From the NCBI GenBank assembly GCA_021513715.1, contig CP084167.1:32001-96000 (forward strand): DNA of 64,000 nucleotides, read 5' to 3'. The DNA is from Candidatus Heimdallarchaeum endolithica. Its GTDB lineage: Archaea > Asgardarchaeota > Heimdallarchaeia > Heimdallarchaeales > Heimdallarchaeaceae. A model generated the notes under the pieces. It had not been told where the DNA came from, searched no databases, and saw only the letters and a program-made list of their open reading frames with translations. Of the stretch, positions 34,264 to 61,173 are shown one piece after another. How positions within the stretch are numbered: the stretch's first letter is position 1; each line of letters begins with the position of its first letter. The translations under genes were made by a program, and so were the position numbers.

Positions 34264-37200
34264 ATGATAAAAAAAAAGAATAAAAAAATTCTATTTGTAT
34301 TGATGCTGACATTATTATTAAATTCCATTGCAACTAAAATGGATAAACACGAAGAATTACTTTTTCAACCTAATGTGAACTCTTCGATTAACAACATTAG
34401 AGATGTCACCTTATCCCTTAGTGAACACGAAACAATACAAATATCTTCAGATAGTGATTTCAGTGCTTTTCCTGGTTCAGGAACAGAGGAAGATCCCTAT
34501 ATTATTGAAGGATACAACATTACAACTGATGCAGATAATGGTATTCATATCCAAGACACTACAAAATACTTTATTATACGCAATTGTTATATAGATGCTT
34601 ATAAACGAGGAGTTTATATTTCAAATGTTGCCAACAATACAGCAAAAATCATTAACAATACTATAACAAACAATAACTACGATGGAATATACTTGCGTTA
34701 TTCTGATTTTGCTACTATTACTAATAATACTATAACAAATAATGGGCAAGGAATATACTTGGGGGATTCTGTTAATGCTACTATTACTGGTAACACTCTA
34801 ATAAACAATAACGGGAATGGAATACAAGTGGCTTGGTCTTCTAATTTTGCTACTATTACTTGTAATACTCTAACAAACAATACCGGGGATGGAATATACT
34901 TGGAATATTCTTCTGATTTTGCTACTATTACTTGTAATACTATAACAAACAATACCGGGGATGGAATATATTTATATTCTTCTGATTTTGCTACTATTAC
35001 TTGTAATACTATAACAAACAATAACGAGTATGGAGGAATATACTTGTATGGAGGAATAAACATAGGTTGGTCTGATTTTGCTACTATTACTTGTAATACT
35101 ATAACAAACAATAACTGGGTTGGAATACACTTGGCGGGTTCTTCTAATGCTACTATTACTTGTAATACTATAACAAATAATGACTACGATGGAATATACT
35201 TGGAATATTCTTCTGCTAATGCTAATATTACTTGTAATACTATAACAAATAACGGGAATGGAATATACTTGTATTATTCTTCTGATTTTGCTACTATTAC
35301 TTGTAATACTATAACAAATAACGGGAAGGGAATATTCTTGCGTTCTTCTGATTATGCTTCTATTACCGACAATACTATAATAGACAATAACGACGATGGA
35401 ATATACTTGTATTCTTCTGATTATGCTACTATTACTTGTAATACTATAACAAATAACGGGAAGGGAATATTCTTGCGTTCTTCTGATTATGCTTCTATTA
35501 CCGACAATACTATAATAGACAATAACGACGATGGAATATACTTGGAGGGTTCTGCTAATGCTACTATTACTTGTAATACTATAACAAACAATAACTACGA
35601 TGGAATACACTTGGAGGATTCTGCTAATGCTACTATTACTTGTAATACTATAACAAACAATACTATAACGGACAATGACGGGGTTGGAATAGGTTTGTAT
35701 TATTCTGCTAATGCTACTATTACTGATAATATCTTTATTAATGATGGACTGCTTATTTATAGCGATGAAATTAGTTTTTATTCCTCTTTAACTGTAGAGG
35801 ACAACTTGGTAAATGGAAAACCTTTAGGCTATTTTTTCAATGCTTCTAATATGGTTATTGATCAATCGGATTACTATGGTCAGCTTATTCTAATTAACTG
35901 TTCTCATCTTACCATTGCTAACCAAAACTTGAGTTATACTGATATTGGTCTATTTGGATTGTATTGCAACTATCTAAATATTACCTATAATATTATAACA
36001 AATAACAGGTATGGAATAGATTTGTGGTATTCTTCTTCTGCTACTATTACTTGTAATACTATAACAAACAATGACTGGGAGGGAATAGGTTTGTGGTATT
36101 CTTCTTCTGCTACTATTACTTGTAATACTATAACAGACAATAACTGGGAGGGAATACACTTGGAATATTCTTCTTCTTCTGCTATTATTACTTGTAATAC
36201 TATAACAGACAATAAAGACGAGGGAATAGGTTTGTATTCTTCTGCTAATGCTACTATTACTAATAATACTATAACAAACAATAACTACGATGGAATATAC
36301 TTGGAGGGTTCTGCTAATGCTACTATTACTTGTAATACTATAACAAATAATGACTACGATGGAATACACTTGGCGGGTTCTGCTAACGCTACTATTACTT
36401 GTAATACTATAACAAACAATAACTACGATGGAATAAAGTTGCATTCTTCTGCTAATGCTACTATTGTAATGAATTTAATTTTGAACAATACGGAATATGG
36501 AATATACTTGTATTACTCTTCTGATTTTGCTACTATTACTTGTAATACTATAACAAACAATGACTGGGAGGGAATATTCTTGCGTTCTTCTGATTATGCT
36601 TCTATTACCAACAATACTATAACAAACAATAACTACGATGGAATATACTTGGAGGGTTCTGCTAATGCTACTATTACTTGTAATACTATAACAAACAATA
36701 ACTACGATGGAATACACTTGGAGGGTTCTGCTAATGCTACTATTGTAATGAATTTAATTATGAACAATACGGAATATGGAATATACTTGTATTCTTCTGC
36801 TAATGCTAATATTTACTCTAATTTTTTTATAGATAACAATTTTCAAGGATCCTCTCAAGCTTATGATTCTGGTCAAGAAAACATATGGTATAACAATACA
36901 ACACAAATAGGTAATTATTGGTCTGATTGGAATGGCATAGGTTCTTATCCTATTGATGGTTATAGCAACTCTGTTGACCTTTATCCTATTAATGATACTG
37001 ATAGTGACGGAATTGATGATGGAGAAGAAGTTAATACTTACGGTACTGATCCTTTAGATTCTGATACTGATGGTGACGGAATTGATGATGGAGAAGAAGT
37101 TAATGCTTATAGTACTGATCCTTTAGATTCTGATACTGATAGTGACGGAATTGATGATGGAGAAGAAGTTAATACTTATGTTACTAACCCTCTCAAAACT

Positions 37201-39363
37201 GATACTGATGATGATGGAATTGATGATGGAGAAGAGGTTTACACTTATATTACCGATCCTTTAGATTCTGATACTGACAGCGATGGTATGCCTGATGGTT
37301 GGGAAGTAGAGAACAGTTTGGATCCTCTAGCTGATGACTCTTCTTCTGACCCTGATTCTGATGGTTTAACTAATTTAGAAGAATATTCAAACTCCACCAA
37401 CCCTAATGATTCTGATACTGATAGTGACGGAATTGATGATGGAGAAGAAGTTAATGCTTATAGTACTGATCCTTTAGATTCTGATACTGATAGTGACGGA
37501 ATTGATGATGGAGAAGAAGTTAATACTTATGTTACTAACCCTCTCAAAACTGATACTGATGATGATGGAATTGATGATGGAGAAGAGGTTTACACTTATA
37601 TTACCGATCCTTTAGATTCTGATACTGACAGCGATGGTATGCCTGATGGTTGGGAAGTAGAGAACAGTTTGGATCCTCTAACTGATGACTCTTCTTCTGA
37701 CCCTGATTCTGATGGTTTAACTAATTTAGAAGAATATCAAGCTGGTACTGATCCTTTAGATTCTGATACTGATGCAGATGGTTTATCTGATAGTGACGAA
37801 GTTACCACTTACAATACTGACCCTAATGATTCTGACACTGACGGTGATGGTATGCCTGATGGTTGGGAAGTAGAGAACAGTTTGGATCCTCTAACTGATG
37901 ACTCTTCTTCTGACCCTGATTCTGATGGTTTAACTAATTTAGAAGAATATCAAGCTGGTACTGATCCTTTAGATTCTGATACTGATGCAGATGGTTTATC
38001 TGATAGTGACGAAGTTACCACTTACAATACCGACCCTAATGATTCTGACACTGACGGTGATGGTATACCTGATGGTTGGGAAGTAGAGAACAGTTTGGAT
38101 CCTCTAACTGATGACTCTTCTTCTGACCCTGATTTTGATGGTTTAACTAATTTAGAAGAATATCTATCAAATACCGACCCTAATGATTCTGACACTGATG
38201 GTGACGGAATTGATGATGGCGACGAAGTTAATACTTATGGTACTGACCCTACATTGTCTGATACTGACAGCGATGGTATACCTGATGGTTGGGAAGTAGA
38301 GAATGATTTAGACCCCTTAACTGATGATTCTGCAGAGGATCCTGATTCTGATGGTTTAACTAATTTAGAAGAATATCTATCAAATACCGACCCTAATGAT
38401 TCTGACACTGATGCAGATGGTTTATCTGATAGTGACGAAGTTACCACTTACAATACTGACCCTAATGATTCTGATACTGATAGTGATAGTATACCTGATG
38501 GTTGGGAAGTAGAGAACAGTTTGGATCCTCTAACTGATGACTCTTCTTCTGACCCTGATTTTGATGGTTTAACTAACTTAGAAGAATATCAAGCTGGTAC
38601 TGATCCTTTAGATTCTGATACTGATGCAGATGGTTTATCTGATAGTGACGAAGTTACCACTTACAATACTGACCCTAATGATTCTGACACTGACGGTGAT
38701 GGTATACCTGATGGTTGGGAAGTAGAGAACAGTTTGGATCCTCTAACTGATGACTCTTCTTCTGACCCTGATTCTGATGGTTTAACTAATTTAGAAGAAT
38801 ATCAAGCTGGTACTGATCCTTTAGATTCTGATACTGATGCAGATGGTTTATCTGATAGTGACGAAGTTACCACTTACAATACTGACCCTAATGATTCTGA
38901 CACTGACGGTGATGGTATACCTGATGGTTGGGAAGTAGAGAACAGTTTGGATCCTCTAACTGATGACTCTTCTTCTGACCCTGATTTTGATGGTTTAACT
39001 AATTTAGAAGAATATCTATCAAATACCGACCCTAATGATTCTGACACTGATGGTGACGGAATTGATGATGGCGACGAAGTTAATACTTATGGTACTGACC
39101 CTACATTGTCTGACACTGATGGTGATGGTATGCCTGATGGTTGGGAAGTAGAGAATGATTTAGACCCCTTAACTGATGATTCTGCAGAGGATCCTGATGG
39201 TGATGGTTTAACTAATTTAGAAGAGTATCAAGCAAGTACAGACCCCCAAATACCTAATACTCAGGGTAAAAAAATAAATACAACTGCTATTATTGTTATT
39301 GCTTCAGTTTTTGGTGCTGTTAGTATTGGAGGATTAGTTTTTCTATTTATTCGACGAAGATAG
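34264..39363 (+). CDS. Large membrane-anchored surface protein: NosD/CASH right-handed beta-helix repeats, TSP3-like DxDxDG Ca-binding repeats and a C-terminal TM anchor
   Basis: Signal peptide; [13 protein letters not shown] cap; 22-23-aa [20 protein letters not shown] coils; DTDxDGxxDGxE repeats; TM helix followed by RRR. Confidence 0.92.
34660..36830 (+). repeat. Intragenic ~66-69-bp tandem repeats (beta-helix coils) in two blocks
   Basis: The core GCTACTATTACTTGTAATACTATAACAAACAAT recurs, and some multi-unit duplications are near exact. Confidence 0.9.
36990..39245 (+). repeat. Intragenic TSP3-like tandem repeats (a 351-bp duplication, then 213-bp units)
   Basis: GGTTGGGAAGTAGAG occurs at 37297, 37648, 37861, 38074, 38287, 38500, 38713, 38926 and 39139. 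Confidence 0.92.
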
Positions 39364-48267: not shown

Positions 48268-49326
48268 ATGAAACTTAATAAATTAAATAAAAAAGCAGTT
48301 TCGCCAGTTATTGCAGTTGTTCTGCTAATTGCTTTAGTTACAGCAGCAGTAGCTATAGTATTTTTTGTAGTTTTACCAATGGTTCAAGGTGATCCCCAAC
48401 TTGTTGTTTTAAAAATTACTCCAGGAGACACTAATTCTGATAACAGAGTTGATAAACTAATTATTGACTACCAAAATATTGGTGCGGGAGAAGCTATCAT
48501 TTCAAGCATTACATTATATAAATATAATACTTCAATCACATGGGATATAGATAAAACGCTTCCTCATTCTATAAAACCAAATAAACAAGATGTTATTATT
48601 CTAACAACTTCAGATCCTACTGAACAGTTAAAATATCCTGACATTGCATACCTTGAAACCAATTACGGTGATGGAATTCTTTTAAGAACAGATATTACTA
48701 TCGACTCTGACTTCTCACCAGTAACTCTAATCTACTCAGAAGATTTTAACTCTTATTCAGATGGTTATTCTCCAGCAGAATGGACATATTTCTTTGTAGC
48801 ACAACATAATCCTACTGGAACTCACACTATTAATGATTGGCAAGTTCAAAGTGGTTCTCTTAAAGTGATGGCTAATGATTGTTCTTATATCATTCTTAAT
48901 TCAAGTACAGGTTATTACTATACTAATGTTAATATGAGCTTTGATCTTAAAGCAAACGACGATGATGAACTTGGAATCATCTTTAGATGGCAAAATGATG
49001 GAGGAAAAGAAAAATATTATCTAGTAAGCTATACTAGAGATCATGGTTTATCAGATCATTTTGGCGGAGATAATCCTACAGATGGGGAAGTAACCTTATC
49101 ATATGTTGAGAACAATGTAATTACTGTTATTGACAGCGCTTCATTCAGTAGAAATGACAACAGTTGGTATAATTACAGGTTAGTTACTGATGGTTCATCA
49201 ATAAAAGTATACATCAATGATGTTCTATACATTGATACAACAAGTACTCTAATTTCTGGGGGATATATTGGTCTTGCATCTGCTGCAATGAATGGAGCTG
49301 AATTTGATAATATTCTTGTATGGTAA
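48268..49326 (+). CDS. Archaeal type IV pilin/archaellin-signal protein with a C-terminal ConA/L-lectin-like (DUF1080/TSP_C-like) domain
   Basis: Class III signal KKA/VSPVIAVVLLIALV; YSEDF...DDDELGIIFRWQ...GYIGL...FDNILV. Confidence 0.85.
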   Translation: MKLNKLNKKAVSPVIAVVLLIALVTAAVAIVFFVVLPMVQGDPQLVVLKITPGDTNSDNRVDKLIIDYQNIGAGEAIISSITLYKYNTSITWDIDKTLPHSIKPNKQDVIILTTSDPTEQLKYPDIAYLETNYGDGILLRTDITIDSDFSPVTLIYSEDFNSYSDGYSPAEWTYFFVAQHNPTGTHTINDWQVQSGSLKVMANDCSYIILNSSTGYYYTNVNMSFDLKANDDDELGIIFRWQNDGGKEKYYLVSYTRDHGLSDHFGGDNPTDGEVTLSYVENNVITVIDSASFSRNDNSWYNYRLVTDGSSIKVYINDVLYIDTTSTLISGGYIGLASAAMNGAEFDNILVW

Positions 49327-49396
49327 AATTTTGATTTTTTCTTCTTTTTCTTTTTTGAATTTAATACTCATTCTTAAACTAAAAAAAAAAAGAATT

Positions 49397-50542
49397 TTAA
49401 TATACACCTAATTGTTCATCTTTCTTTAAGATTCTTCGAGGGTTTCTTATTCCATCTCTATTGCCGTATATCCCTTTTCCTTTAATTAATTCACCGTAGT
49501 CTCCATGTTGAATTAATGCAGGAATTACGCATTCTGGGCTTACTCTTTGGCTTACAACAGTTCCTTCTTCACCATAGCTTCCACGTTGACTAATATCATT
49601 TTCATCTTTAGTTACAAACATGTTCATTCTCTCCCAAGGATAATAATCTAGGTCATAGTTTTCATTTGGCAATTCTGTTTGCATTGTTGGTCCAAAAAGC
49701 GATTGTCCATAGTAACCTGCAAGAGGTAGTTTTAATTCTTCTTTTACTAGTCTGTGTGTTTCTTGAGACATAGGAACACCTCCATGTATTATAGCTTTGA
49801 GATTTCCATGTTCTTTCATTTTTTTGATTATTGGATACATTTTCTCTACAATCACACCAGTTGTAATAACAATTCCAATGTTACTGAATTCTTGCTCTAT
49901 TAAATTCTGTACCTGAAAATTCATGTTTTCTAGATATAACTTTGCTGCATTAGGATCTTTCATCATTGAGACTTTTATGAATCGAGGGTCAAGATCTATG
50001 TGATAAATCATAGATTCCATATCTCTATCCCAGTATTTTACTACCCACTTCCCAGCCATATGGGGACCAGTAGGAAGCATCGATAGGACATTTAAGCCTC
50101 TTGGGATTTTATGAGCATCGATCATTCTTAAAGCTGCTTGACTTGCAACTGGAAATGTAGGCAGTTCAATATCATATGGGTCCAATTCTCCTGGAAGAAG
50201 AGTCATATCTTCAAGAAACACAGTTTTTTTTGGTTTCCCTGTTGTTCCTCCTGTTTCAACTAGAGGAGTAGCTCTATGTCTACTTTTCTTTGCCCATTTA
50301 AAAGCCCATTTAGTAGTTGTGTGATAAATAGACTTTCTAAACTCATCAGGCTTAACATCGCCAAAAAACTCTGTAAGTTCTACCCAGTTTCTTACGTCTC
50401 CTTTCTTTACATTTTTATTTTTTGCTAAATTAATCATCATTGGAGACCCATATTCTTCATCTATTGCGATATTTACGCATTCTTCAATAAAATCACTTAT
50501 TTGATTTTTACTTGTTGTTTCACTTTTGGTTTCAGTAATCAT
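49397..50542 (-). CDS. EhpF/GriC-like adenylating (LuxE-related) subunit of a carboxylate reductase
   Basis: ETGGTTGKPK, PTGPHMAG, IDLDPRFIK and terminal GVY* are characteristic of EhpF/GriC-type proteins. Confidence 0.82.
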   Translation of the reverse strand: MITETKSETTSKNQISDFIEECVNIAIDEEYGSPMMINLAKNKNVKKGDVRNWVELTEFFGDVKPDEFRKSIYHTTTKWAFKWAKKSRHRATPLVETGGTTGKPKKTVFLEDMTLLPGELDPYDIELPTFPVASQAALRMIDAHKIPRGLNVLSMLPTGPHMAGKWVVKYWDRDMESMIYHIDLDPRFIKVSMMKDPNAAKLYLENMNFQVQNLIEQEFSNIGIVITTGVIVEKMYPIIKKMKEHGNLKAIIHGGVPMSQETHRLVKEELKLPLAGYYGQSLFGPTMQTELPNENYDLDYYPWERMNMFVTKDENDISQRGSYGEEGTVVSQRVSPECVIPALIQHGDYGELIKGKGIYGNRDGIRNPRRILKKDEQLGVY

Positions 50543-50639
50543 TTTTTCACCAATTATTTATTCTATAATTTATTTATAAATGAGGAAATTTTCAAAAAAA
50601 ACTGCAATTTTTCTGCAATTATTAACGGAATATAATTAA

Positions 50640-50699
50640 TTAAATAAAACGATGTATGTTTGCAAAAAGGGGAATAAAACTTTTTATTGGGTCAAACAT
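50640..50699 (-). CDS. Possible 19-aa peptide MFDPIKSFIPLFANIHRFI
   Basis: ATG 50699 to TAA 50640. Shares 13 bp around the start with the upstream TPR gene. Confidence 0.25.
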   Translation of the reverse strand: MFDPIKSFIPLFANIHRFI

Positions 50700-50801
50700 C
50701 TTTGAGTTTTATTCCTTTTTTTCTTTTCTTATCCTCTATTATTCTCTATAGTTGTATTGAACAAATATATATAAACCTAAAGAAAATAATTTAAAAAAGT
50801 T

Positions 50802-52496
50802 CTAATTCTTATTATTCATAAACTCTTGAATTACTTGTTTTGATTGTTCTTCGTATTCTTCTTGTAAAGCGATTTTCATGAAATCTTCTTTTAGCTTTTC
50901 TGCTAAACACTCTGAATTAATAAGAAGTTTGTACATCTTTATTTCTTCATTAAGTTTGATAAACTTTAATTTTTTACTTTCATTTTCAAGTTCAGATAAA
51001 CCTTTTAACACTCTTTTTTTATTTTTCACTTTATCTTGTAGATACAAGTCAATTAGCTTATAAATTTTAAATTGTATTTTATAAATTATTACTTCTGTAT
51101 TTTGTATTTCGTTTGTAAGCTCTTCAATAAGAGAATGAAAATATCCAAATAACCCTCTTGATAATAGTATTTTGCATGATTCAAGTTTATTAATAATAGA
51201 GTATTCTTGAGTAAAGGTTCTCTCTTTTAATTCTGCATGTAACTCGGATAATCTTTTTTCAATTTCTTCTTTTGGGATATCATCAACAAAAAGCAGATTT
51301 GCTACTAGTTCAATGTAGTCATGTTGTGTTCCATCTTTTTTTTCTATAAAATATTCAATTAATAAGTTTTGATCCTTTAAAAATAGAAATTCTTCTTTTT
51401 TTACTAATTTTGATAATTGTTCTTTTAGATTAGGAAACACCTCTTCTGAAAAATCTTTATCCATTACATAGTAAATAAATCTTAAAGTCAAATAAAGTTT
51501 GTATAAATAGTAGTCATGGGTTTTTTTATCTATTTTATTCTCTAATTTTGCAAGTATTTGATACAATTCTTTCAAATATTCCATAGATTTTTCTATATTT
51601 CCTTTAAAAACAGAAGAACGGGCTAAAAACTTCAAACTTTCTAAAGCAAAGAAATAGTAAGGGTAAATAAGGTTTGCTTGTTTCTGAAAATCAAATGAAA
51701 GTTTAAAGTGTTTTTCAGCAAGAGAGTATTGCTTTAACAAATAATAACTTTTACCCAATCTGAAAGTAATCATAATTTTTATTTCAGAATGTACTTTTTC
51801 CAAAATATTTTCATTTTCAATTTCTTGCATAAGTTCTTTTGCTTTCTCATTTTGTGCTTGCCTTATTAAAAAAAGAATAAAAATAGACTTTATTACTAAA
51901 TATGACCTGATTTTTTCGGTGTTATAAAAGTAATTAATGACTTCATTCCAGAAAGAGAGATTGCTTTTTGACAATTTTTTCATTAACTCGGGATAAAAAG
52001 AGAGATATGAAAAAGCAATATCGTAAAAAATTTCTCTGTTTTGTTCTTTAAATTTTTTTGCTATTTGGAATGCTTCTTTGATTTTTTTGGTAGAAAGTTC
52101 AAATTTTTTTTCCATCTTAAAAAGTACTGCATCAATTCGTGTTTTTAATGCTTGAATTTCTGGGATATTTCCATATTTAGATGAAATCTGTTCAATTTCT
52201 TCAGATAGTGATTTTAGTAACGAAGGTTCAAAAAACATTGCTTGTGAATATAAATGATTTAATAAAAGAAAATATTTTAAAATGTAAGGCTTTTTTTGAC
52301 AAGTATTGTTTTTTTTGATAAAAGTATGAAATTCTTTGTATAGTTTAAATAAATCAACACTTCGTTCATTATAGTTAAGAAAAAATAACTTTTCATAAAT
52401 ATCTTCAATTTCTTTGCTTTTAAGGTCATGAAGTGAAGAGAAAACAAGATTTTCTAAATTTTCTTTTATCTTTTTAACTTTAGAAGGGTCAAACAT
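50802..52496 (-). CDS. TPR-repeat protein
   Basis: Helical repeats, e.g. FRLGKSYYLLKQYSLAEKHFKLS and LARSSVFKGNIEKSMEYL. Confidence 0.75.
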   Translation of the reverse strand: MFDPSKVKKIKENLENLVFSSLHDLKSKEIEDIYEKLFFLNYNERSVDLFKLYKEFHTFIKKNNTCQKKPYILKYFLLLNHLYSQAMFFEPSLLKSLSEEIEQISSKYGNIPEIQALKTRIDAVLFKMEKKFELSTKKIKEAFQIAKKFKEQNREIFYDIAFSYLSFYPELMKKLSKSNLSFWNEVINYFYNTEKIRSYLVIKSIFILFLIRQAQNEKAKELMQEIENENILEKVHSEIKIMITFRLGKSYYLLKQYSLAEKHFKLSFDFQKQANLIYPYYFFALESLKFLARSSVFKGNIEKSMEYLKELYQILAKLENKIDKKTHDYYLYKLYLTLRFIYYVMDKDFSEEVFPNLKEQLSKLVKKEEFLFLKDQNLLIEYFIEKKDGTQHDYIELVANLLFVDDIPKEEIEKRLSELHAELKERTFTQEYSIINKLESCKILLSRGLFGYFHSLIEELTNEIQNTEVIIYKIQFKIYKLIDLYLQDKVKNKKRVLKGLSELENESKKLKFIKLNEEIKMYKLLINSECLAEKLKEDFMKIALQEEYEEQSKQVIQEFMNNKN

Positions 52497-52654
52497 CTAA
52501 ATGAAATAGAGCTTTTATACAGATAAATATTACTGTTCTCATTTTATCATAATAAAACAAAATAAAAGTAACTTTTTTCTTTCTAACATTACTAAATCCC
52601 TAAAAGTTCTAAATAACTTTAAAAAGTAAAATCTTTATTATTTCTTGAGCGACG

Positions 52655-53506
52655 ATGGAACATAGCGAATTTAAGTGGGATGTTGAGAATCAACCCAGAT
52701 CACGTATTAGTGTTATTGCTGTTCATAGTCAAAAAGGTGGTCCTGGAAAAACTACTATTTCTGTCAATTTAGCTTTAGAATTTGCAAAGAGGAATAAAAA
52801 AACTCTTTTTGTAGATTTAGATATAGGTGGAGGAACAGCTCAACATGTGTTTAACATTTCTAAAGAAGAAATTAAGTTAACTATTAATGACATACTACTT
52901 GGAAACAAGAATTTTAACAAGAATAACGTTAATCATACTGAAATAGAAAACTTAGATGTAATAGTTTCAAAAGAGGATGTAGAATTTGGTTCAGGCCTAT
53001 TAAATCTAATGAAAGAGATTCAGGATAATGCATTTTTCAGATTAATAGAATTTGTTAATACTGTAAAAAAGAATGGTTATGACTGTATAGTTTTTGATTG
53101 CACACCAGGATGGAAAATTGAAAGTTTATATGCATTATGTGTAAGCGATATTAATCTTTTTATCCTCAGACCAAGTACTTTCAGCTTCAAGGGAGCAAAG
53201 TACATGCTAAATAAGATGTATAGGGAAATTGATGTTTTATCATCTGCAAAAACAAAAAAACCTTCTACTTACTTCATTTATAACCAAACTCCTTTTGATA
53301 AAGAGTCAGAGGTTGAAGAAATATTAGAAAAATGGAAAAAGGAAATTGTTGAAGCATATAAACCTAAGAAAATAGAATTTCTAAAAGAAATACGATATTC
53401 TGATGAAATTAACAATCGCACAATCAATGGTAATTATTTTGCTCCTGAAGGTTCTGAACTTCACTTATCTATTCAGCAAATAACAGATAAATTAGAAAAA
53501 AAATAA
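52655..53506 (+). CDS. MinD/ParA-family ATPase
   Basis: Deviant Walker A KGGPGKTT, VDLD and FDCTPG. Confidence 0.9.
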   Translation: MEHSEFKWDVENQPRSRISVIAVHSQKGGPGKTTISVNLALEFAKRNKKTLFVDLDIGGGTAQHVFNISKEEIKLTINDILLGNKNFNKNNVNHTEIENLDVIVSKEDVEFGSGLLNLMKEIQDNAFFRLIEFVNTVKKNGYDCIVFDCTPGWKIESLYALCVSDINLFILRPSTFSFKGAKYMLNKMYREIDVLSSAKTKKPSTYFIYNQTPFDKESEVEEILEKWKKEIVEAYKPKKIEFLKEIRYSDEINNRTINGNYFAPEGSELHLSIQQITDKLEKK

Positions 53507-53543
53507 TTGAAAGAAATCGATAACAACTTTCTATAAAATAAAG

Positions 53544-54886
53544 TTACAATTCTTTTAGTTCCAATTTGACTATTTTTCTTTTCCATTTATTGAACTCTGT
53601 TACTTCTGTTGGATAAGAGAGAGAGAGTTTTTCAATCTTTTTAGCAATTAGAATCATTCTTATTAGTCTAAGCATGAGTTTAGGTTTTTTTAACGCTTTA
53701 ATGAATTTACTAAAAATGGGTGGTTTATAGCCTAAATCACCTAAAACACTATTAACATCTTCTTGAGTTATAATACCACTAGCAAATAAATATTCAAAGT
53801 CTAAAATAGGATATTTTTTCATGAATTTGTGGATAGCTATCCCCATACTTCCTAAATAACCAAATTTTTGCCAGATATCTATATTATATTGCCACAAACT
53901 TTCTTCAGAAAAATCTCTTCTTGCAAATGCGGAGATAATTGTTCTTGCAGCATAATATCCAGATAATAGAGCTAGACCATGCCCTTCTCCATTTATTGGA
54001 TTTGCTAATGCAGCAGCATCACCACAAACAATCAAATTTTCTCCCACCATTGAATACAGAGGTAAACGACCAGGAAGTAAATCAGTATCATGTCTAATAA
54101 CTTTACACTAAGGAAAAATCTTTTCTCTAATTTTTTCTAGAACATCACTTGGGTTGATCTTCTTATTCTGTTCATTTATTAACCAACCTACTCCTACGTT
54201 CAACTTTGTTTTACCTTTTGAAAAAATCCAAAAGTAACCAGGAGGAGGAAGTTCAGGATGAAGTTCTATCCTCATTTGTTTCTGAAAAGAATGTTCTTCT
54301 TTTGTTTGAATAATTTCTCTACATGAAACTATAGTTTCCTCTCTACTAACTTGGTTAATTTTAGGAAATATATCACTAGGAAGCTGTTTTCTTATTATTG
54401 CAGTATATCCAGAACAATCTGTTACTATTTTGGAATAATAATGCTTCTTTTTTCCTGTCTTATCTTTAGTAACTACACCAACAATTTTTCCTTCTGTAAT
54501 GATAGGTTCCACGGCTTTTGTTTCTGTTAATATAGAAATTGTTGGGAAATTTTGCACATTTTTAATAATTGTTGGCCATACTTTAATCTATCAATAGTTC
54601 TACATTGAAAAGCGATACTTATTTCAAACTTGTTTGCAGAAGAGAGATGAACTGTTTCTAGTTTCTCACAAACAGATTCAGAATTTGGTTCTTCTATCTG
54701 ACAAAGAGTTTTTAGCTCTTCTGTTCTTTCGAATCCTAAAGCATCCCCACAAGTTTTTTCTCCTATTAATTTTATAGATTTTTTTTCAATTAATAATGTA
54801 CTTAGCTTGTTTTTTCCTAAACAATAAGCAAGACTCAATCCTGCAGGACCTGCTCCAATAATAATAACATCAAACGAAGAATTCAA
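53544..54886 (-). pseudogene. Geranylgeranyl reductase-family FAD oxidoreductase, interrupted
   Basis: IIGAGPAG, KTCGD, PGYFWIF and CGDAAALANPINGEG motifs. One frameshift in the T5 run at 54559-63 and an in-frame TAG at 54108-10. Confidence 0.85.
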
Positions 54887-55022
54887 ATTTACCGCTTTGC
54901 TATAATTTGTATGTTAAAAAAGTTTTCTCCAAATATGATTTAATGAACTTTATAATTTCAAATGAAGCCTTTTTATAAAAGTTCATTGATTACAATTATC
55001 AAAACAAACTTTCTATAATACT

Positions 55023-55646
55023 TCAGAAAGAGGAAGAATTAAAACAACTCATCTTTTTATAAGATTTTTCAACTTTTTTAATTATTTTATTGAAAACCTT
55101 TGAAATAATAACTTGTTCTAGTTTTATTCCTACTATTTCTGAATACTTTTTCAAAATGTAGAAATTTTGGTAAAGCGATAAATCTTGATCTGCGTTTTGG
55201 CTTAATAGACCTAAAAGTTGGTTTAAGATGTTTTTATCAAAATCAAATTTTCTTAAAATTTGTAAATGAGCTTCTTCTATTGCTTTTTTTTGAAATAGAT
55301 GTATAGATTCTGATAATGCGAACATGAACCTTAGGCACTCTGATTCTTCACCTTCAGCTAAAGCTTCAGATTTTATTTTATAAATAGAATAAACTTCCTC
55401 AAAATCAATTCCTAAAATACTTGTTAGAGATTGAATAAATTCTAATTCACTTTTTTCTTCCCATAATTTTGTAATAGAAAATATCTTATCATACATTTTT
55501 TTTATTATTTCTGAACTGCTACTTATTTTCATTTGCTTTTTTGATGTTCTATCTATAAGAAAGAAAGGTTCTTTGAAAAATTGTTGTTGAAGTAAATAAT
55601 TTATCACGTCGCTTATATTACACTGTTCTAAGGTCATCATGTTCAC
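55023..55646 (-). CDS. Hypothetical helical protein
   Basis: 207-aa ORF. Confidence 0.6.
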   Translation of the reverse strand: MNMMTLEQCNISDVINYLLQQQFFKEPFFLIDRTSKKQMKISSSSEIIKKMYDKIFSITKLWEEKSELEFIQSLTSILGIDFEEVYSIYKIKSEALAEGEESECLRFMFALSESIHLFQKKAIEEAHLQILRKFDFDKNILNQLLGLLSQNADQDLSLYQNFYILKKYSEIVGIKLEQVIISKVFNKIIKKVEKSYKKMSCFNSSSF

Positions 55647-55758
55647 AAAGTAGAATTGCTTTATAATAAGAAGTCTTTTCTTATTTATATATATTTTTAG
55701 TTATCCACAAATGTTATACAAAAAAGCGAAAAAGAAAAGGTAAAAGTGAAATCACCAA

Positions 55759-57444
55759 CTATAATTTGCTTTTTTTAGAAATAAAAATAGACTTTATCCT
55801 TTCTTTATAAAAAACAAATAAGAAGGAAATTATAATAACTAAAAAATAAATACTGAAGGCTACTATCCATTTCCACCAGATATAGTTATTAGCCCAACAC
55901 AAACTTAATGTTGCTACAGAAAGGGTCATTAACAGTGCTATTGGAGCACTTTTCTTAATCACTTCTCCTTCAATTCCTACTTCATCTATTACAGCAGCTG
56001 CATTTTGTATCTTTGCTGGTGATAGAACAGAAGCTAATCCTCCCCCTACACCATTAGCTGTTCCAACAGCGACAGCTATTAAACCTATTTGTTCTGAAGC
56101 TGTTTTATGCAAAAGAGTGAACATTGCAATAGATGATGTTTCTGAACCACTTACAAAACCGCCTAGTAAACCAATAAATGGTACAATTAAAGGATAATAT
56201 TTGCCAAAAGCGTTTGCTGACGCTGTAGCTAAAATATAGATAATGTTATTTTCAGTAATTTTGAACCAAGAATTATTTTGAAAGATGTATCCTGAATAAA
56301 TTAATAGAAAAGCGACAGCAAAATAGATTGCTGCTGCATAAACAGGACGATAGCTTCTCTTTATCCATTTTTTAGCAGTTTGCACAAGATGTTCTTTTTT
56401 CCAGCCTAAAACAGGAATTGAAAGTATCGTTGCTACAAGAACCCAGAAGTAAGCTTGCTCTAGAAATCTTGTAGTGATAACAATTTCTCCTATTGTAAAT
56501 GCAAAAGGTAGTTGATTATGAAATAAATTAGAAAGAAAAGGTATAAAGTTTACTAAAGACACGAAAAGTATGAGTAATATCCATGGAAACATAGCTCTTA
56601 CTAATGACATTGATTGATCTATTTTCTTTTCTTCTTCTGTAACTACGCTTTTGTCTATTATTTTTACCTTTTTAATTAATGCTAAAATTACTAAAACTGT
56701 AGCAGTAATTATTCCAGATACAACTCCAGTAAGCTTGACTATACCTAAATAATTTGAGATAATAGCTGACACTCCAGCTGTTAATCCGCCCACAATTCCA
56801 AAAGTAAACCCATCTTTACTAAAAAGTAAATCTTTCCCTCCTGCAAGATAGAGCATACCTAAAGCTATTCCTAAAGAAACTAGCGGCATATAATAACTAA
56901 AAGCTATTCCTGATTCTTTCAAAGGAATGTTCATAAACTCTGCAAAAAATACAGCAGGAACAGCAAGTAAAGCATAAGTACATAGAGGGTCATAACCTAT
57001 TGATGGAAGAGCAACTGCTGCAAAAGCGCTATAACCCATAGCTGCTAGAACAGGAGGTAGCATTGTAACAGGTGTTGCACCAATTGAAACAAGAAAAGTT
57101 CCAAATGAGAGATTAATTAACATTATTTGAAAAGCTTTATTTCCTCCACCTATTTTTTTGAACGAAACTACTATCTTAGCAAGAGCTCCAGTCTTTTCCA
57201 TATAAGTCATCATTAAAATGCTTGTTAAAACCATCAAACTAATTGGAAAACTCTTAGCAAGACCGCCTATAGAAGTGAGAAAAGCTATTTTCCAATTTGT
57301 TTTAAAATAAAAAATCGATAGAACTAAGAAAAGTACAAATATTAAGGTTCCAGTAGTATCTGCTTTCCATTTAAATTTTATTAACAAAACGGAAGCTATT
57401 AGAAAAGGTAGTAGTATTAACAAAATGTCAATTACTAAACTCAT
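55759..57444 (-). CDS. lctP: L-lactate permease family transporter
   Basis: Highly hydrophobic; GGFVSGSETSSIAMF and SVLSPAKI motifs. Confidence 0.85.
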   Translation of the reverse strand: MSLVIDILLILLPFLIASVLLIKFKWKADTTGTLIFVLFLVLSIFYFKTNWKIAFLTSIGGLAKSFPISLMVLTSILMMTYMEKTGALAKIVVSFKKIGGGNKAFQIMLINLSFGTFLVSIGATPVTMLPPVLAAMGYSAFAAVALPSIGYDPLCTYALLAVPAVFFAEFMNIPLKESGIAFSYYMPLVSLGIALGMLYLAGGKDLLFSKDGFTFGIVGGLTAGVSAIISNYLGIVKLTGVVSGIITATVLVILALIKKVKIIDKSVVTEEEKKIDQSMSLVRAMFPWILLILFVSLVNFIPFLSNLFHNQLPFAFTIGEIVITTRFLEQAYFWVLVATILSIPVLGWKKEHLVQTAKKWIKRSYRPVYAAAIYFAVAFLLIYSGYIFQNNSWFKITENNIIYILATASANAFGKYYPLIVPFIGLLGGFVSGSETSSIAMFTLLHKTASEQIGLIAVAVGTANGVGGGLASVLSPAKIQNAAAVIDEVGIEGEVIKKSAPIALLMTLSVATLSLCWANNYIWWKWIVAFSIYFLVIIISFLFVFYKERIKSIFISKKSKL

Positions 57445-57466
57445 ATCCTTTAAAAAACGAATAAAA

Positions 57467-59521
57467 TTAAAAATGTTCTTGAATCTTTTTAAAAATAGTT
57501 TCAGTTACCCCCTCTTCTTTTAGAATGGGGTATACATCTATAGCATAATTGATCAATCGTGATTTACTATCATGGGTGTAAAAATTGGATATTAGAGAAA
57601 AAGAAAAATTTCCTAAAGGAAAAATTGTTGCAATAAATCCAGAATTGAAAACAAAACGACAATCATTATTGTTATTGTTTACTTTTTCCACATGAATCTC
57701 TTTTGATATCTTGAAAATAAGAGAAACCATTCCTCCCAACAACTCATTTGAAAGAAATAAATTATCCTCAACAAAATTGTAAGACAGTAATACTTTTTCT
57801 TCAGTCGAGTCAATTATTTGTAAAACAAGTAAATTCTCCTTTAATGGAGTAAAAGTTCTGATAATCTCAAAAAAATCTATTTCTGTAAGAACTAAGTGGT
57901 TTAAATCATAATGATAACTATTAACTAATTTTGTTATTTGGCTAGTCTTTTTATTACAATTTGCAAAAAGTTCAACTTCAATGTTGTTAATAATTTGTAG
58001 TAAAATAGAATCAGAGATATTAAATTTGGCTAAAGACTCTTTGATATTGTAGAAAAAAGAGTTAGCTTTATCAGGGAAATCTAAAATAATGAAAAATTGA
58101 GAAATTTGAGTAGTATAATTAATCCACTGAAAAAGACTGAAATATCTTTTTAATACATTATTGCTTTCCTTAAAAATATGAATTATATTGTTTACAATAG
58201 TATTTTTTTCATCATAAATCCTAAATTTTAGGAGATATACTCTAATTAGAATAGAATTTCTTTTAAGAAGACAATAACTACTTTTTAATGTAGAAATTTC
58301 AATATAGTTTTCTAATAGTATTTTTTCTGCATTCCAGATATTTTCTTTTAATAATTCAATTTGAGCCGTTCTTATCTTATATTCAAAAACATATCCTGAG
58401 TTTTCTTCAAGATTTAAGATTTTTTCTATAAAATTCTTGAATAAAATGAGATATTTATTAGCTTCTTCAGTATTTTTGATAGTTAAATAATAATCAAAGG
58501 CAACAGTATAAAGTTGAACCACTTCAAAATTGAATTTATTAGCTAGTTTAAACGATTTCTTCAAATAAGACTCTGAATTTTCAAAATGGTTCAATATCAA
58601 AAAAATTTTACTTAAGTATAAATAAATCCTAATTAAATTTTGAGAAATGTACTTTTTCTCAAAAAAATACATAGTTTCAATCAAGATATCCAAACTTTCA
58701 TCAACATACCCTTTTTGAAAACGTATATAAGCTAAATTTGCCTTTTCGATATTCTTTCTAATTTCAATTTTTAATAATTCAAAAATATTGAAACTTTTTC
58801 TATATAAAATTTCAGCGTTATCTAAATCAAAATAAAATATAATTGATGCTAGTTCTGAAAAAATACAACCTAAAATATACTGATCTTCTAGTTCTTCATT
58901 TTTCAAGATAGTAATCGCTTGAGAAAAAAAGTTTTTTGCTTCTATAATCTTGCCTTTCTTATTATTAATTTTACCTTTCACATACATTAATATTGAATTA
59001 TAATAAGCGATTATTCTTTCTGGGTATTTATCTTTCAAACCTTTAATAATTGTTCCTGCTTTATTTAGTAGAGAATCAATTGGTTCTATTTGATTACAAT
59101 TAAGATGGAATTGTATTTTTTCAATGATATAATCGAAATAGAGAAAAGGAGAAACTTCAGAATTGTTAATAAAAGATTCATCTAAAAAATAAATTAATTC
59201 CTTTGCATCATTGCAACCCATTTCAGTATTTAATAAACCCAAATAATATGTTCCAACCCATATATTCATGTATTGAGAATATAATTGCTCTAATTTTTCT
59301 TTAAAATTGTACATTTTTAGTATATACGCTATTTTACTTTGATAAATAGGGGAAAGTCTAGATTCGATTATTTCTGACCAATTATTCACAATAAGACTAA
59401 CAACATCTACAAGATTAGGAGATTCATGATCAAAAAATACATTTTCTCTATCATCCTCAAAATAATAGTTAAATCTAAATAATTCTCCTAATTGCAAATT
59501 AACTTCTGCTTTTTTTGGCAA
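57467..59521 (-). CDS. TPR-repeat protein with a C-terminal longin/roadblock-like domain
   Basis: TPR helices, then LLVLQIIDSTEEKVLLSYNF...NELLGGMVSLIFKISKEI. Confidence 0.75.
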   Translation of the reverse strand: MPKKAEVNLQLGELFRFNYYFEDDRENVFFDHESPNLVDVVSLIVNNWSEIIESRLSPIYQSKIAYILKMYNFKEKLEQLYSQYMNIWVGTYYLGLLNTEMGCNDAKELIYFLDESFINNSEVSPFLYFDYIIEKIQFHLNCNQIEPIDSLLNKAGTIIKGLKDKYPERIIAYYNSILMYVKGKINNKKGKIIEAKNFFSQAITILKNEELEDQYILGCIFSELASIIFYFDLDNAEILYRKSFNIFELLKIEIRKNIEKANLAYIRFQKGYVDESLDILIETMYFFEKKYISQNLIRIYLYLSKIFLILNHFENSESYLKKSFKLANKFNFEVVQLYTVAFDYYLTIKNTEEANKYLILFKNFIEKILNLEENSGYVFEYKIRTAQIELLKENIWNAEKILLENYIEISTLKSSYCLLKRNSILIRVYLLKFRIYDEKNTIVNNIIHIFKESNNVLKRYFSLFQWINYTTQISQFFIILDFPDKANSFFYNIKESLAKFNISDSILLQIINNIEVELFANCNKKTSQITKLVNSYHYDLNHLVLTEIDFFEIIRTFTPLKENLLVLQIIDSTEEKVLLSYNFVEDNLFLSNELLGGMVSLIFKISKEIHVEKVNNNNNDCRFVFNSGFIATIFPLGNFSFSLISNFYTHDSKSRLINYAIDVYPILKEEGVTETIFKKIQEHF

Positions 59522-59575
59522 TTTAAAAAATCTTTGTTAGTCTTAGTCCAAAAATAAAAAATTAGATTAGAATAA

Positions 59576-59597
59576 AGGAGAAGAATATTCTTCTCCT
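59576..59597. promoter_or_regulatory. Perfect 22-bp palindrome AGGAGAAGAATATTCTTCTCCT
   Basis: Self-complementary; lies in the divergent intergenic region between the TPR-longin and GriD-like genes. Confidence 0.55.
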
Positions 59598-59742
59598 GCA
59601 GATATGGGAGCAAGAGGTTATCTCGTGCTAATTTGTGGGTATTTATTCTATAACTATTTATCTTATAAATTCAAAAGAAAAAAGTAGACAAAAAAATTTC
59701 CTTCTTTATAAATGATTCTTGTAATTAATAATTGAAAATAAA

Positions 59743-61173
59743 ATGAGTTCTTTACTAAGTGATTTACCAACATTAAGAAATGGTACAGAATATTTAAGTT
59801 CAACAAAGGTACCTTTGAAAGGAATAAACGGAAAATTTCTTACTAACATAAGTTTTTCTCCTGAACTTCATATACAAATGGCAATTCCAATAAACAGAGG
59901 AATAGGTTTTCGAAAACTATCAAAAATACCAATAGATGATCTCATTGATATCTATGTTGAAGCTGGAAAGATTTTCTCAAAAGAAATGGTAATAGGTGGT
60001 CAAAGCACTACGCTTGAAGATTGGAACAAACTAATCACTTTATCAACAGGAATGCCTATTTCTGTGGTTAGAAACGCTGTAGGAATGATACCTTCTTTTT
60101 TCAAGAAGGAACAATTAGAACGTTTTCTCACTGCTAACAGTCCTACAGGTGAATTGGAAGTATATGATAAGTTAATGGGAGTTAGAGGAAAAACAAAGTT
60201 TGGTTTCGCTCCAAGAGGAAAAAACGTTGGTGTAGCTCTTCCTGGCAATCATCCTGCAGTAGCTTTATTTGGAGCACTAATTCCATTATTCAAGATTCCT
60301 GCAATAATACGCTCATCAAGCAGTGAACCTTTTACAAGTTATAGAATTTGTAAATCTTTATGGGAAGCAGGAATACCTTCAGAAGCTCTTTTTCACTTTG
60401 TGACTACTCATGCAGAAGTTGATACTTTGGTGACAAAAAGCGATTTAGGAATAGTATTTGGTTCAGATTGGACAATTCAAATGTATGGGAAAAACAATAA
60501 AATTAAAGCTTACGGGCCAGGTAGATCAAAAATACTAGTAGATGCTGATAAGATGAGTACATATAGAATGCGTCAAGCTCTTGATATCGCTTATAGAAGC
60601 ATAACTTATGATGGAGGAAGAGGATGTATTAATGCATCAGGAATAATTTATAATTCAGAAGAAGGATATGATGAATTTAAACACAAACTCGCTAGAAAAC
60701 TAGCTAAGATAGAGCCTTATCATCCTCTTGAAGAAGAATCCCAACTTCCTGCTATGACAAAAGAAGCAGCAATAAATTTAGCAAGTTATATTAATCAAAG
60801 AATGAAAAATACGAAAGATCTAACAGCTGAATATAGGGGATACGATGATTTCCTCTATCTAAATGGAGAATTTGGTTATTTACTTCCAATGCTTTTAGAA
60901 ATTGATGAGAATCATAAGATGCGAACAGATGAATATCCTTTCCCATTTGGAACAATAACAAAAGTTGAGGAATACTTACCTCATGAGCTAGTTAGAGATA
61001 CGCTTGCTTTAAGTGTTATTACAGATAAAAAAGAAAAAGTAAAAGAATATCTATTAGAACCATCGATTCACAAAGTGTTTGTAAATGAGAGTTCTTTTTT
61101 GATGGATTTAGCTGCTCCTCATGAAGGGTTTATGAGTGACTTTCTTTATCAAAAGAAAGCAACTAATTTATAA
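59743..61173 (+). CDS. EhpG/GriD-like aldehyde dehydrogenase-fold (LuxC-related) reductase subunit
   Basis: LPGNHPAV, SSSEPFT, VFG, YGPGRSKIL, GGRGCINAS (catalytic Cys), EYPFPF and PHEGFMSDFL motifs. Confidence 0.82.
   Translation: MSSLLSDLPTLRNGTEYLSSTKVPLKGINGKFLTNISFSPELHIQMAIPINRGIGFRKLSKIPIDDLIDIYVEAGKIFSKEMVIGGQSTTLEDWNKLITLSTGMPISVVRNAVGMIPSFFKKEQLERFLTANSPTGELEVYDKLMGVRGKTKFGFAPRGKNVGVALPGNHPAVALFGALIPLFKIPAIIRSSSSEPFTSYRICKSLWEAGIPSEALFHFVTTHAEVDTLVTKSDLGIVFGSDWTIQMYGKNNKIKAYGPGRSKILVDADKMSTYRMRQALDIAYRSITYDGGRGCINASGIIYNSEEGYDEFKHKLARKLAKIEPYHPLEEESQLPAMTKEAAINLASYINQRMKNTKDLTAEYRGYDDFLYLNGEFGYLLPMLLEIDENHKMRTDEYPFPFGTITKVEEYLPHELVRDTLALSVITDKKEKVKEYLLEPSIHKVFVNESSFLMDLAAPHEGFMSDFLYQKKATNL

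Follow-up and report, generated by a model that had tools for sequence, protein, structure and literature searches.

To our knowledge, no more than a couple of antibiotic pathways, all bacterial, are known to use a two-protein carboxylate reductase of the GriC/GriD type. In the grixazone pathway of Streptomyces griseus, GriC is described as forming an acyl-AMP which GriD then reduces, turning an aryl acid into an aldehyde (Suzuki, Ohnishi and Horinouchi 2007, J Antibiot 60:380, as cited in PMC10179220). EhpF and EhpG belong to the D-alanylgriseoluteic acid phenazine cluster of Pantoea (Enterobacter) agglomerans (EhpF: 3HGU, 3HGV, 3L2K). In the LuxE/LuxC system, LuxE carries the acyl group on Cys364 (motif TRxxKGCxLS) and has a mobile tail (PMC9157457; PDB 7XC6). 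Here a probable split pair of the GriC/GriD or EhpF/EhpG type is described from Candidatus Heimdallarchaeum endolithica, an Asgard archaeon of the family Heimdallarchaeaceae. The stretch analysed (the window) is 64,000 nucleotides long and covers positions 32,001 to 96,000 of contig CP084167.1 (assembly GCA_021513715.1, forward strand). The host genome is closed, 3.33 Mb in size and has a G+C content of ~28%.

The two genes, each an open reading frame (ORF), are divergent and face outward, with 9.2 kb between them:

49397-50542, minus strand: EhpF/GriC-like adenylating subunit gene, 381 amino acids (aa)
59743-61173, plus strand: EhpG/GriD-like reductase subunit gene of the aldehyde dehydrogenase (ALDH) fold, 476 aa

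Both are single copy in this genome. A first-pass annotation, made from the sequence alone, had placed both halves of such a reductase here, and its coordinates, the outward orientation, the spacing of ~9 kb and all of the motifs it quoted were confirmed in the sequence. We consider it probable that the two genes encode two subunits of one carboxylic acid reductase acting in trans, that their ancestral operon was split, and that a shared promoter maintains their co-expression.

The predicted adenylating subunit

The 381-aa protein carries a P-loop (ETGGTTGKPK), the motifs PTGPH and DLDPRFIK, and a C-terminal GVY. In a phmmer search EhpF was its top PDB match (E 2.5e-13), and no other adenylating enzyme was matched. 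The AlphaFold model (predicted local distance difference test, pLDDT, 89) contains the ANL N-terminal domain and lacks the C-terminal subdomain, i.e. it is a truncated ANL fold. When this model was used in a fold search, the top five matches were all EhpF chains (template modelling (TM) score 0.72-0.79, E 2e-23 to 4e-21), followed by a tier of PaaK ligases (E 1e-15, TM ~0.6). The first-pass annotation had asked whether an ordinary phenylacetate-CoA ligase might be the best match; by sequence and by fold alike, that place is taken by EhpF. A Pfam scan of the protein found nothing, AMP-binding included, and an NCBIfam scan found just one fatty-acid-CoA ligase match far below threshold.

The motifs were compared in an alignment of the 381-aa protein with the EhpF homologue from a Pantoea plasmid ehp cluster and with family members from a haloarchaeon and from metagenomes. 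The columns of the P-loop, DPR, YG and the terminal G-V-Y are invariant; within PTGPH, this is true of P157 and G159 alone. A 23-sequence alignment of the EhpF family gives the same motif picture. The terminal G-V-Y sits on a low-confidence tail of the model and, by analogy with the mobile tail of LuxE, might speculatively be a docking or lid element. No invariant Cys was found in the Heimdall EhpF-like clade or in the wider EhpF family alignment. As this differs from LuxE with its Cys364, a direct hand-off of the acyl-AMP is more likely.

When 1.84 billion representative proteins were searched with a profile, only 273 members or clusters of the EhpF-like family were found, and the Heimdall clade was well separated from the rest (541-705 bits vs ≤221). 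Membership of the 381-aa protein in the EhpF/GriC family is supported. Distant members of the family in other organisms (P0127, P0157, P0149 and P0164/P0210/P0226) have the EhpF-like domain fused to class-III aminotransferase, Zn-dependent alcohol dehydrogenase, alpha/beta hydrolase or SCP2 lipid-binding domains. Two of these fusion partners, the class-III aminotransferase and the Zn-dependent alcohol dehydrogenase, are aldehyde-consuming enzymes, which we count in favour of an aldehyde-producing pair. No fusion of the EhpF-like half to the ALDH half was found among the long family members inspected.

The predicted reductase subunit

The 476-aa protein carries the motifs PGNHP, EPFT, GPGRSK, GRGCINAS and PHEG..DFL. 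It passes the Pfam cut-offs of both Aldedh (41.8 bits) and LuxC (41.7 bits; cut-off 21), and its model (pLDDT 92) has a full ALDH fold (TM 0.78 to ALDHs). In a BLASTP comparison it matched Pantoea EhpG with an E of 2e-24, GPGRSK being identical and PH[DE]G..FL common to both. It also aligned with the partner of the Halalkalicoccus EhpF-like gene with an E of 3e-46.

Among 23 Heimdall and other ALDH-like sequences, the oxyanion N169 (PGNHP), the catalytic C295 (GRGCINAS), E397 and the G258, G260, S262 and K263 of GPGRSK are invariant, while P259 of the same motif is nearly so. In a HMMER alignment, K263 aligns with the general-base Glu in the ELGG motif of an ordinary ALDH. Judging from this alignment, the hydrolytic general base is lost and a Lys stands in its place. 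From this replacement we infer that the protein is a thioester-reducing enzyme, not a hydrolytic aldehyde oxidiser. The motif columns of both subunits are invariant or nearly invariant across the Heimdall proteins, their bacterial and haloarchaeal relatives and the Pantoea EhpF/EhpG homologues, a pattern that identifies them as family signatures, not chance strings.

Partnership of the two genes

Outside Heimdallarchaeaceae, adjacency was checked locus by locus (n=9). The loci are five metagenomic contigs (L032, L033, L034, L035/36 and L037), the Pantoea ehp cluster (L038), a Halalkalicoccus plasmid (L039), a Streptantibioticus megaplasmid (L040) and an Asgard genome from another family (G063). 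At all nine, the EhpF-like gene lies directly beside a homologue of the 476-aa protein, in agreement with the first-pass statement that such genes are usually adjacent in the bacterial pathways. Together with EhpF as the top sequence and fold match and the alignment to EhpG, this supports the EhpF/EhpG (GriC/GriD)-type assignment made in that annotation. The haloarchaeal pair is adjoined by a Na+/solute symporter and an SDR protein.

Within the family, 15 of the 24 other Heimdallarchaeaceae genomes possess both genes and five possess neither. The remaining four are discordant: three have the EhpF-like gene only and one has the ALDH-like gene only, and all four are drafts of 81-90% completeness. 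Neither protein's family was found in 16 sister-family genomes, where the single match to the ALDH-like query was a distant ALDH (27% identity). In 201 sampled Asgard genomes the EhpF-like family is limited to Heimdallarchaeaceae and one other genome, in which the pair is adjacent.

The trees of both proteins contain a monophyletic Heimdall clade (support 100/100), and in both trees its sister is the adjacent metagenomic pair L033. These parallel phylogenies fit a single acquisition of the gene pair, which was later separated. In the six genomes that have both genes on one contig, the separation is 3.1, 4.3, 9.2, 10.3, 11.4 and 21 kb. In the large genus g4 the two genes do not share a contig, and many of the contigs concerned break off no more than a few kb away from them.

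A shared core promoter

Upstream of the two genes there are two copies of one core promoter:

50572-50591, minus strand: core promoter of the EhpF-like gene, AAATTTCCTCATTTATAAAT, with a pyrimidine-rich element at the position of the TFB recognition element (BRE) and a TATA box
59694-59713, plus strand: core promoter of the ALDH-like gene, AAATTTCCTTCTTTATAAAT, the only other exact match of the pattern in the genome

Both 20-mers end 29 nt before the ATG of their own gene. The pattern they have in common, AAATTTCCT-NN-TTTATAAAT (18 bases), matches exactly twice in 3.33 Mb, once upstream of each gene. The 57-nt segment from promoter to ATG was also slid over both strands of the whole genome (6.6 million positions). 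The two segments were each other's best ungapped match, in register, with 40/57 identical positions (next best: 38). None of the intervening genes carries this promoter. The possibility that it is simply the general promoter consensus was rejected: the sequence preceding 144 strong TATA boxes is rich in A and T, and C accounts for 8-21% at each position.

Comparable pairs of promoters were detected in other Heimdallarchaeaceae. In G012, TCGAGYTTATAAATGAA with one mismatch allowed matches the two genes alone, and so does TACCACNTATATATAYYAATTT with two mismatches allowed in G014 and G024. A 17-mer in G021 has three exact matches, two of which are the pair. Reversed control patterns gave 0 or 1 matches. 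The promoters differ by lineage and fall into TTTCCT, CTCGAG and TACCAC types. Since they are alike within a genome yet differ between lineages, the pattern is read as selection for co-expression of the two subunits.

A perfect 22-bp palindrome, AGGAGAAGAATATTCTTCTCCT, is located at 59576-59597, in the divergent intergenic region between the ALDH-like gene and its neighbour, the gene of a 684-aa protein, ~100 nt ahead of the shared promoter. In the sister species (G001) the right half, at least, is still present. The palindrome is a candidate operator.

The promoter likeness might instead be a leftover of duplication or gene conversion at the time the operon was split, with no selected co-regulation behind it; the enzyme pairing may still hold in that case. 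We regard this as unlikely. In its favour, the similarity in this genome covers all 57 nt from the promoter to the ATG, and the region is prone to rearrangement (inversion, variable inserts). However, protein identity has fallen to 47-58% between genera, while the promoters are still alike within each genome and differ between lineages. Without selection, this would need repeated conversion between loci, which in drafts lie on different contigs. In G014, moreover, the likeness of the two promoters is limited to ~22 nt of core promoter.

Proposed function and its alternatives

Family membership, catalytic residues, partnership elsewhere, co-occurrence, parallel phylogeny and the shared promoter all point to one two-subunit reductase. 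Its chemistry, the physical interaction of the subunits and the direction of the reaction are predicted, and the mechanism is drawn from homology to GriC/GriD and EhpF/EhpG and from analogy to LuxE/LuxC. In the first step the 381-aa subunit would activate a carboxylic acid with ATP, forming an acyl-adenylate, and Cys295 of the ALDH-fold subunit (476 aa) would then take over the acyl group. This second subunit would reduce the thioester with NAD(P)H and release the aldehyde; because it has no hydrolytic general base, reduction is expected rather than hydrolysis. The ancestral operon would have been pulled apart in Heimdallarchaeaceae, and co-expression would have been preserved by a genome-unique core promoter present in two copies, one per gene, that vary in step from lineage to lineage. 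The weak hints at a substrate diverge: in this genus an LctP-type carboxylate permease is found between the genes, the haloarchaeal pair has its symporter and SDR protein, and the fusions involve aminotransferase, alcohol dehydrogenase and SCP2 domains.

Several observations weigh against one shared enzyme of this type. The characterised bacterial proteins share only 22-27% identity with the pair, and the activity of the archaeal members is a prediction. The pair is non-adjacent in every Heimdallarchaeaceae genome where the distance is measurable (about 3-21 kb). The fold search with the 476-aa model returned generic ALDHs only, with no EhpG/GriD chain among the matches listed. No substrate or product pathway genes are recognisable near the pair. 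As for the promoters, each pattern was built from the very pair that it describes, which leaves genome-wide uniqueness as the sole test, and in G003 the promoter of the ALDH-like gene has no obvious resemblance to that of its partner.

Some of these points would also be expected if the two proteins were now independent, the EhpF-like protein being an acyl-adenylate ligase with another acceptor (forming an amide or ester) and the ALDH-like protein an ordinary aldehyde dehydrogenase or acyl-CoA reductase. The separation of the genes and the generic fold matches of the 476-aa protein agree with this, as do the three drafts with the EhpF-like gene only and the one with the ALDH-like gene only. Nevertheless, independence appears improbable. 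A promoter that is unique in the genome and co-varies between lineages argues against it, and so do the strong co-occurrence, the parallel phylogenies and the adjacency at all nine other loci. The general-base Glu, which an ordinary aldehyde dehydrogenase would possess, is replaced by an invariant Lys, and the discordant genomes are all incomplete drafts.

Genes between and around the pair

The region between the two subunit genes contains the following features:

Between the pair: 564-aa helical protein with marginal tetratricopeptide repeat (TPR) signals only (best E 0.026)
52655-53506: ParA/MinD-type ATPase gene
53544-54886, minus strand: FAD-dependent digeranylgeranylglycerophospholipid reductase gene, split into three ORFs
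Between the pair: 207-aa protein without a significant Pfam or NCBIfam match
55759-57444: LctP-family permease gene
57467-59521, minus strand: gene of the 684-aa TPR-like protein, with sub-threshold TPR matches and a C-terminal domain that is weakly longin/roadblock-like

The MinD/ParA ATPase, FAD reductase and LctP permease which the first-pass annotation had listed between the pair are thus all present. The reductase gene is interrupted twice, by a frameshift near 54527-54557 and by an in-frame stop codon located between 54050 and 54108; in the sister species G001 it is intact (447 aa). It is either a pseudogene or the product of sequencing errors.

The annotation had also described flanking TPR genes, one of them with a longin-like end. 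The two proteins exist, but the TPR label is weak for both. The C-terminus of the 684-aa protein (residues 560-684) matches longin/sedlin/roadblock-type clusters with a structural TM of 0.49-0.68 and a feature score of 0.77. Asgard clusters of TPR proteins of 636-744 aa match the same part structurally as well (TM 0.55-0.57). The longin-like C-terminus is only a lead.

The arrangement of TPR, ParA, permease and TPR genes is kept only in the same-genus genome G001. Even between these two genomes, a two-gene segment (48268-50542), composed of the EhpF-like gene and the gene of a lectin-like protein with a pilin signal and DUF1080, is inverted relative to its surroundings. In four other genera, phmmer found no relatives of either TPR-like protein near the pair. 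The sole recurrence in another genus concerns G005, where a ParA-like gene (39% identity) adjoins the EhpF-like gene. Elsewhere, the genes between or around the pair encode beta-helix surface proteins, HD and DegV proteins, a phosphodiesterase, a PAS histidine kinase, HepT/MNT toxin-antitoxin pairs, helicases and ABC transporters. As the neighbours are not conserved and do not carry the pair's promoter, they are treated as bystanders in a region prone to rearrangement.

The first-pass annotation had proposed that the reductase makes an aldehyde signal or metabolite which is coupled to TPR/longin sensing, and had suggested examining the synteny of the pair with the TPR and MinD genes. The comparison above does not bear this coupling out. 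It is very improbable that the reductase, the flanking TPR/longin proteins and the MinD/ParA ATPase form one integrated system in which the latter proteins sense or organise an aldehyde signal: the arrangement does persist in G001, the ParA-like gene and a weakly similar large protein do flank the EhpF-like gene in G005, and the 684-aa protein does have its weak longin/roadblock-like matches, but TPR-like homologues are absent near the pair in the four other genera, the intervening genes differ everywhere and lack the pair's promoter, and the two-gene segment is already inverted between G000 (this genome) and G001. The idea that the aldehyde is a signal is itself pure conjecture.

No Pfam families of the phzA-G or griI/griH scaffold type were found among the genes at 43.7-63.8 kb of the window, which agrees with the first-pass remark that phenazine and other scaffold genes are missing. 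A search of the whole genome for PhzA/B gave no match, but the control genomes likewise gave no match, which leaves this empty search uninformative.

Two further observations concern the variability of the region. In the genera g4 and g2, toxin-antitoxin pairs of the HepT/MNT type are found repeatedly close to both reductase genes (L046, L048, L052, L055, L043 and L026), which marks the region as variable. A 1699-aa protein with beta-helix, NosD and TSP3 repeats is encoded at 34264-39363 (plus strand) of the window, and in other genera its relatives adjoin or separate the reductase genes. These relatives may be the cause of the draft-assembly breaks near the reductase genes.

The wider promoter class

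A looser promoter class, TTTCYY-N2-3-TTTATAAA, has 24 sites in the genome. Nine of these, all preceding ORFs, are found within one 45-kb stretch:

G000:C1:82-128 kb (window position 50.5 kb to ~32 kb beyond the window end): 45-kb cluster of class sites

The clustering is similar in the sister species G001, where 7 of the 19 class sites lie within 53 kb. The ORFs behind the nine clustered sites are mostly without a Pfam family; one has a helix-turn-helix resembling sigma-70 region 4. A Rad51/RadA paralogue (HHH_5 + Rad51; G000:C1:122082-123170, minus strand; L069:183-1271), encoded within the 45-kb stretch and ~27 kb past the window end, has a TTTCC-type promoter whose element is two mismatches from the pattern of the pair. 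The promoter of this paralogue fits the class in G000, G001 and G020, the G020 orthologue having the CTCGAG-type variant. In G002, G005 and G012 the paralogue is found ~30-60 kb from the reductase genes.

It was also considered whether the variant of the pair tracks that of the wider class. This was rejected, as in G014 the Rad51 paralogue has a CTCGAG-type promoter vs the TACCAC type of the pair. Co-variation at the level of the class is rejected, while co-variation at the level of the pair stands. A more far-reaching idea is that the split pair belongs to a transcription programme specific to Heimdallarchaeaceae, in which a pyrimidine-rich element replaces the purine-rich BRE and is read by a dedicated TFB-like factor. 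The variant of the pair would then co-evolve with that factor or with a pair-specific regulator, and the aldehyde would serve a regulated function linked to stress, recombination or the cell surface, not secondary metabolism. This is a tentative suggestion, doubtful on present evidence.

Comparison with known systems

The enzyme system is a known one, though barely studied; the pair described here represents a variant of it in which the genes are split but linked by their promoter, and it is conserved across Heimdallarchaeaceae. Asgard archaea are the closest known archaeal relatives of eukaryotes, and here the pair is conserved in a whole Asgard family, outside any biosynthetic cluster, which suggests that it serves core or conditional physiology. 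No literature linking Heimdallarchaeia to carboxylic acid reductases was found. The two proteins are a potential new compact biocatalyst pair. Their private, co-varying promoter is a natural test case for the co-regulation of unlinked archaeal genes and for promoter recognition beyond the canonical BRE and TATA box.

Phenylacetate-CoA ligases of the PaaK type have the same N-terminal ANL domain as the 381-aa protein. They differ in possessing the C-terminal subdomain and in their use of CoA, and their fold matches are eight orders of magnitude weaker than those of EhpF.

LuxE/LuxC resembles the Heimdall pair in its logic: an adenylating enzyme without the ANL C-terminal subdomain and with a short flexible tail, and an acyl group that goes to a Cys of an ALDH-fold reductase. 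Unlike LuxE, the Heimdall EhpF-like clade has no invariant Cys, and the LuxE Pfam family (PF04443) has no match in the genome. The 476-aa protein gave just a marginal phmmer match to LuxC (E 0.41), although it passes the Pfam LuxC cut-off.

GriC/GriD of Streptomyces griseus has the same two-protein logic and is likened here by description, not by sequence. The same adjacent pair is found at the Streptomycetaceae locus L040, whereas the Heimdall pair is without the 3-amino-4-hydroxybenzoate (3,4-AHBA) pathway context of grixazone synthesis.

EhpF/EhpG differs from the Heimdall pair in that identity is only 22-23%, that ~17-20 additional aa follow the P-loop as an insertion in the Heimdall EhpF-like clade, and that the Heimdall genes are non-adjacent with no phenazine genes seen. 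The likeness to it extends over both subunits: the 381-aa protein has the truncated ANL fold, the P-loop, PTGPH, DxDPR and the terminal GVY in common with EhpF, and the 476-aa protein has PGN, EPFT, GPGRSK, the Cys motif and PH[DE]G..FL in common with EhpG.

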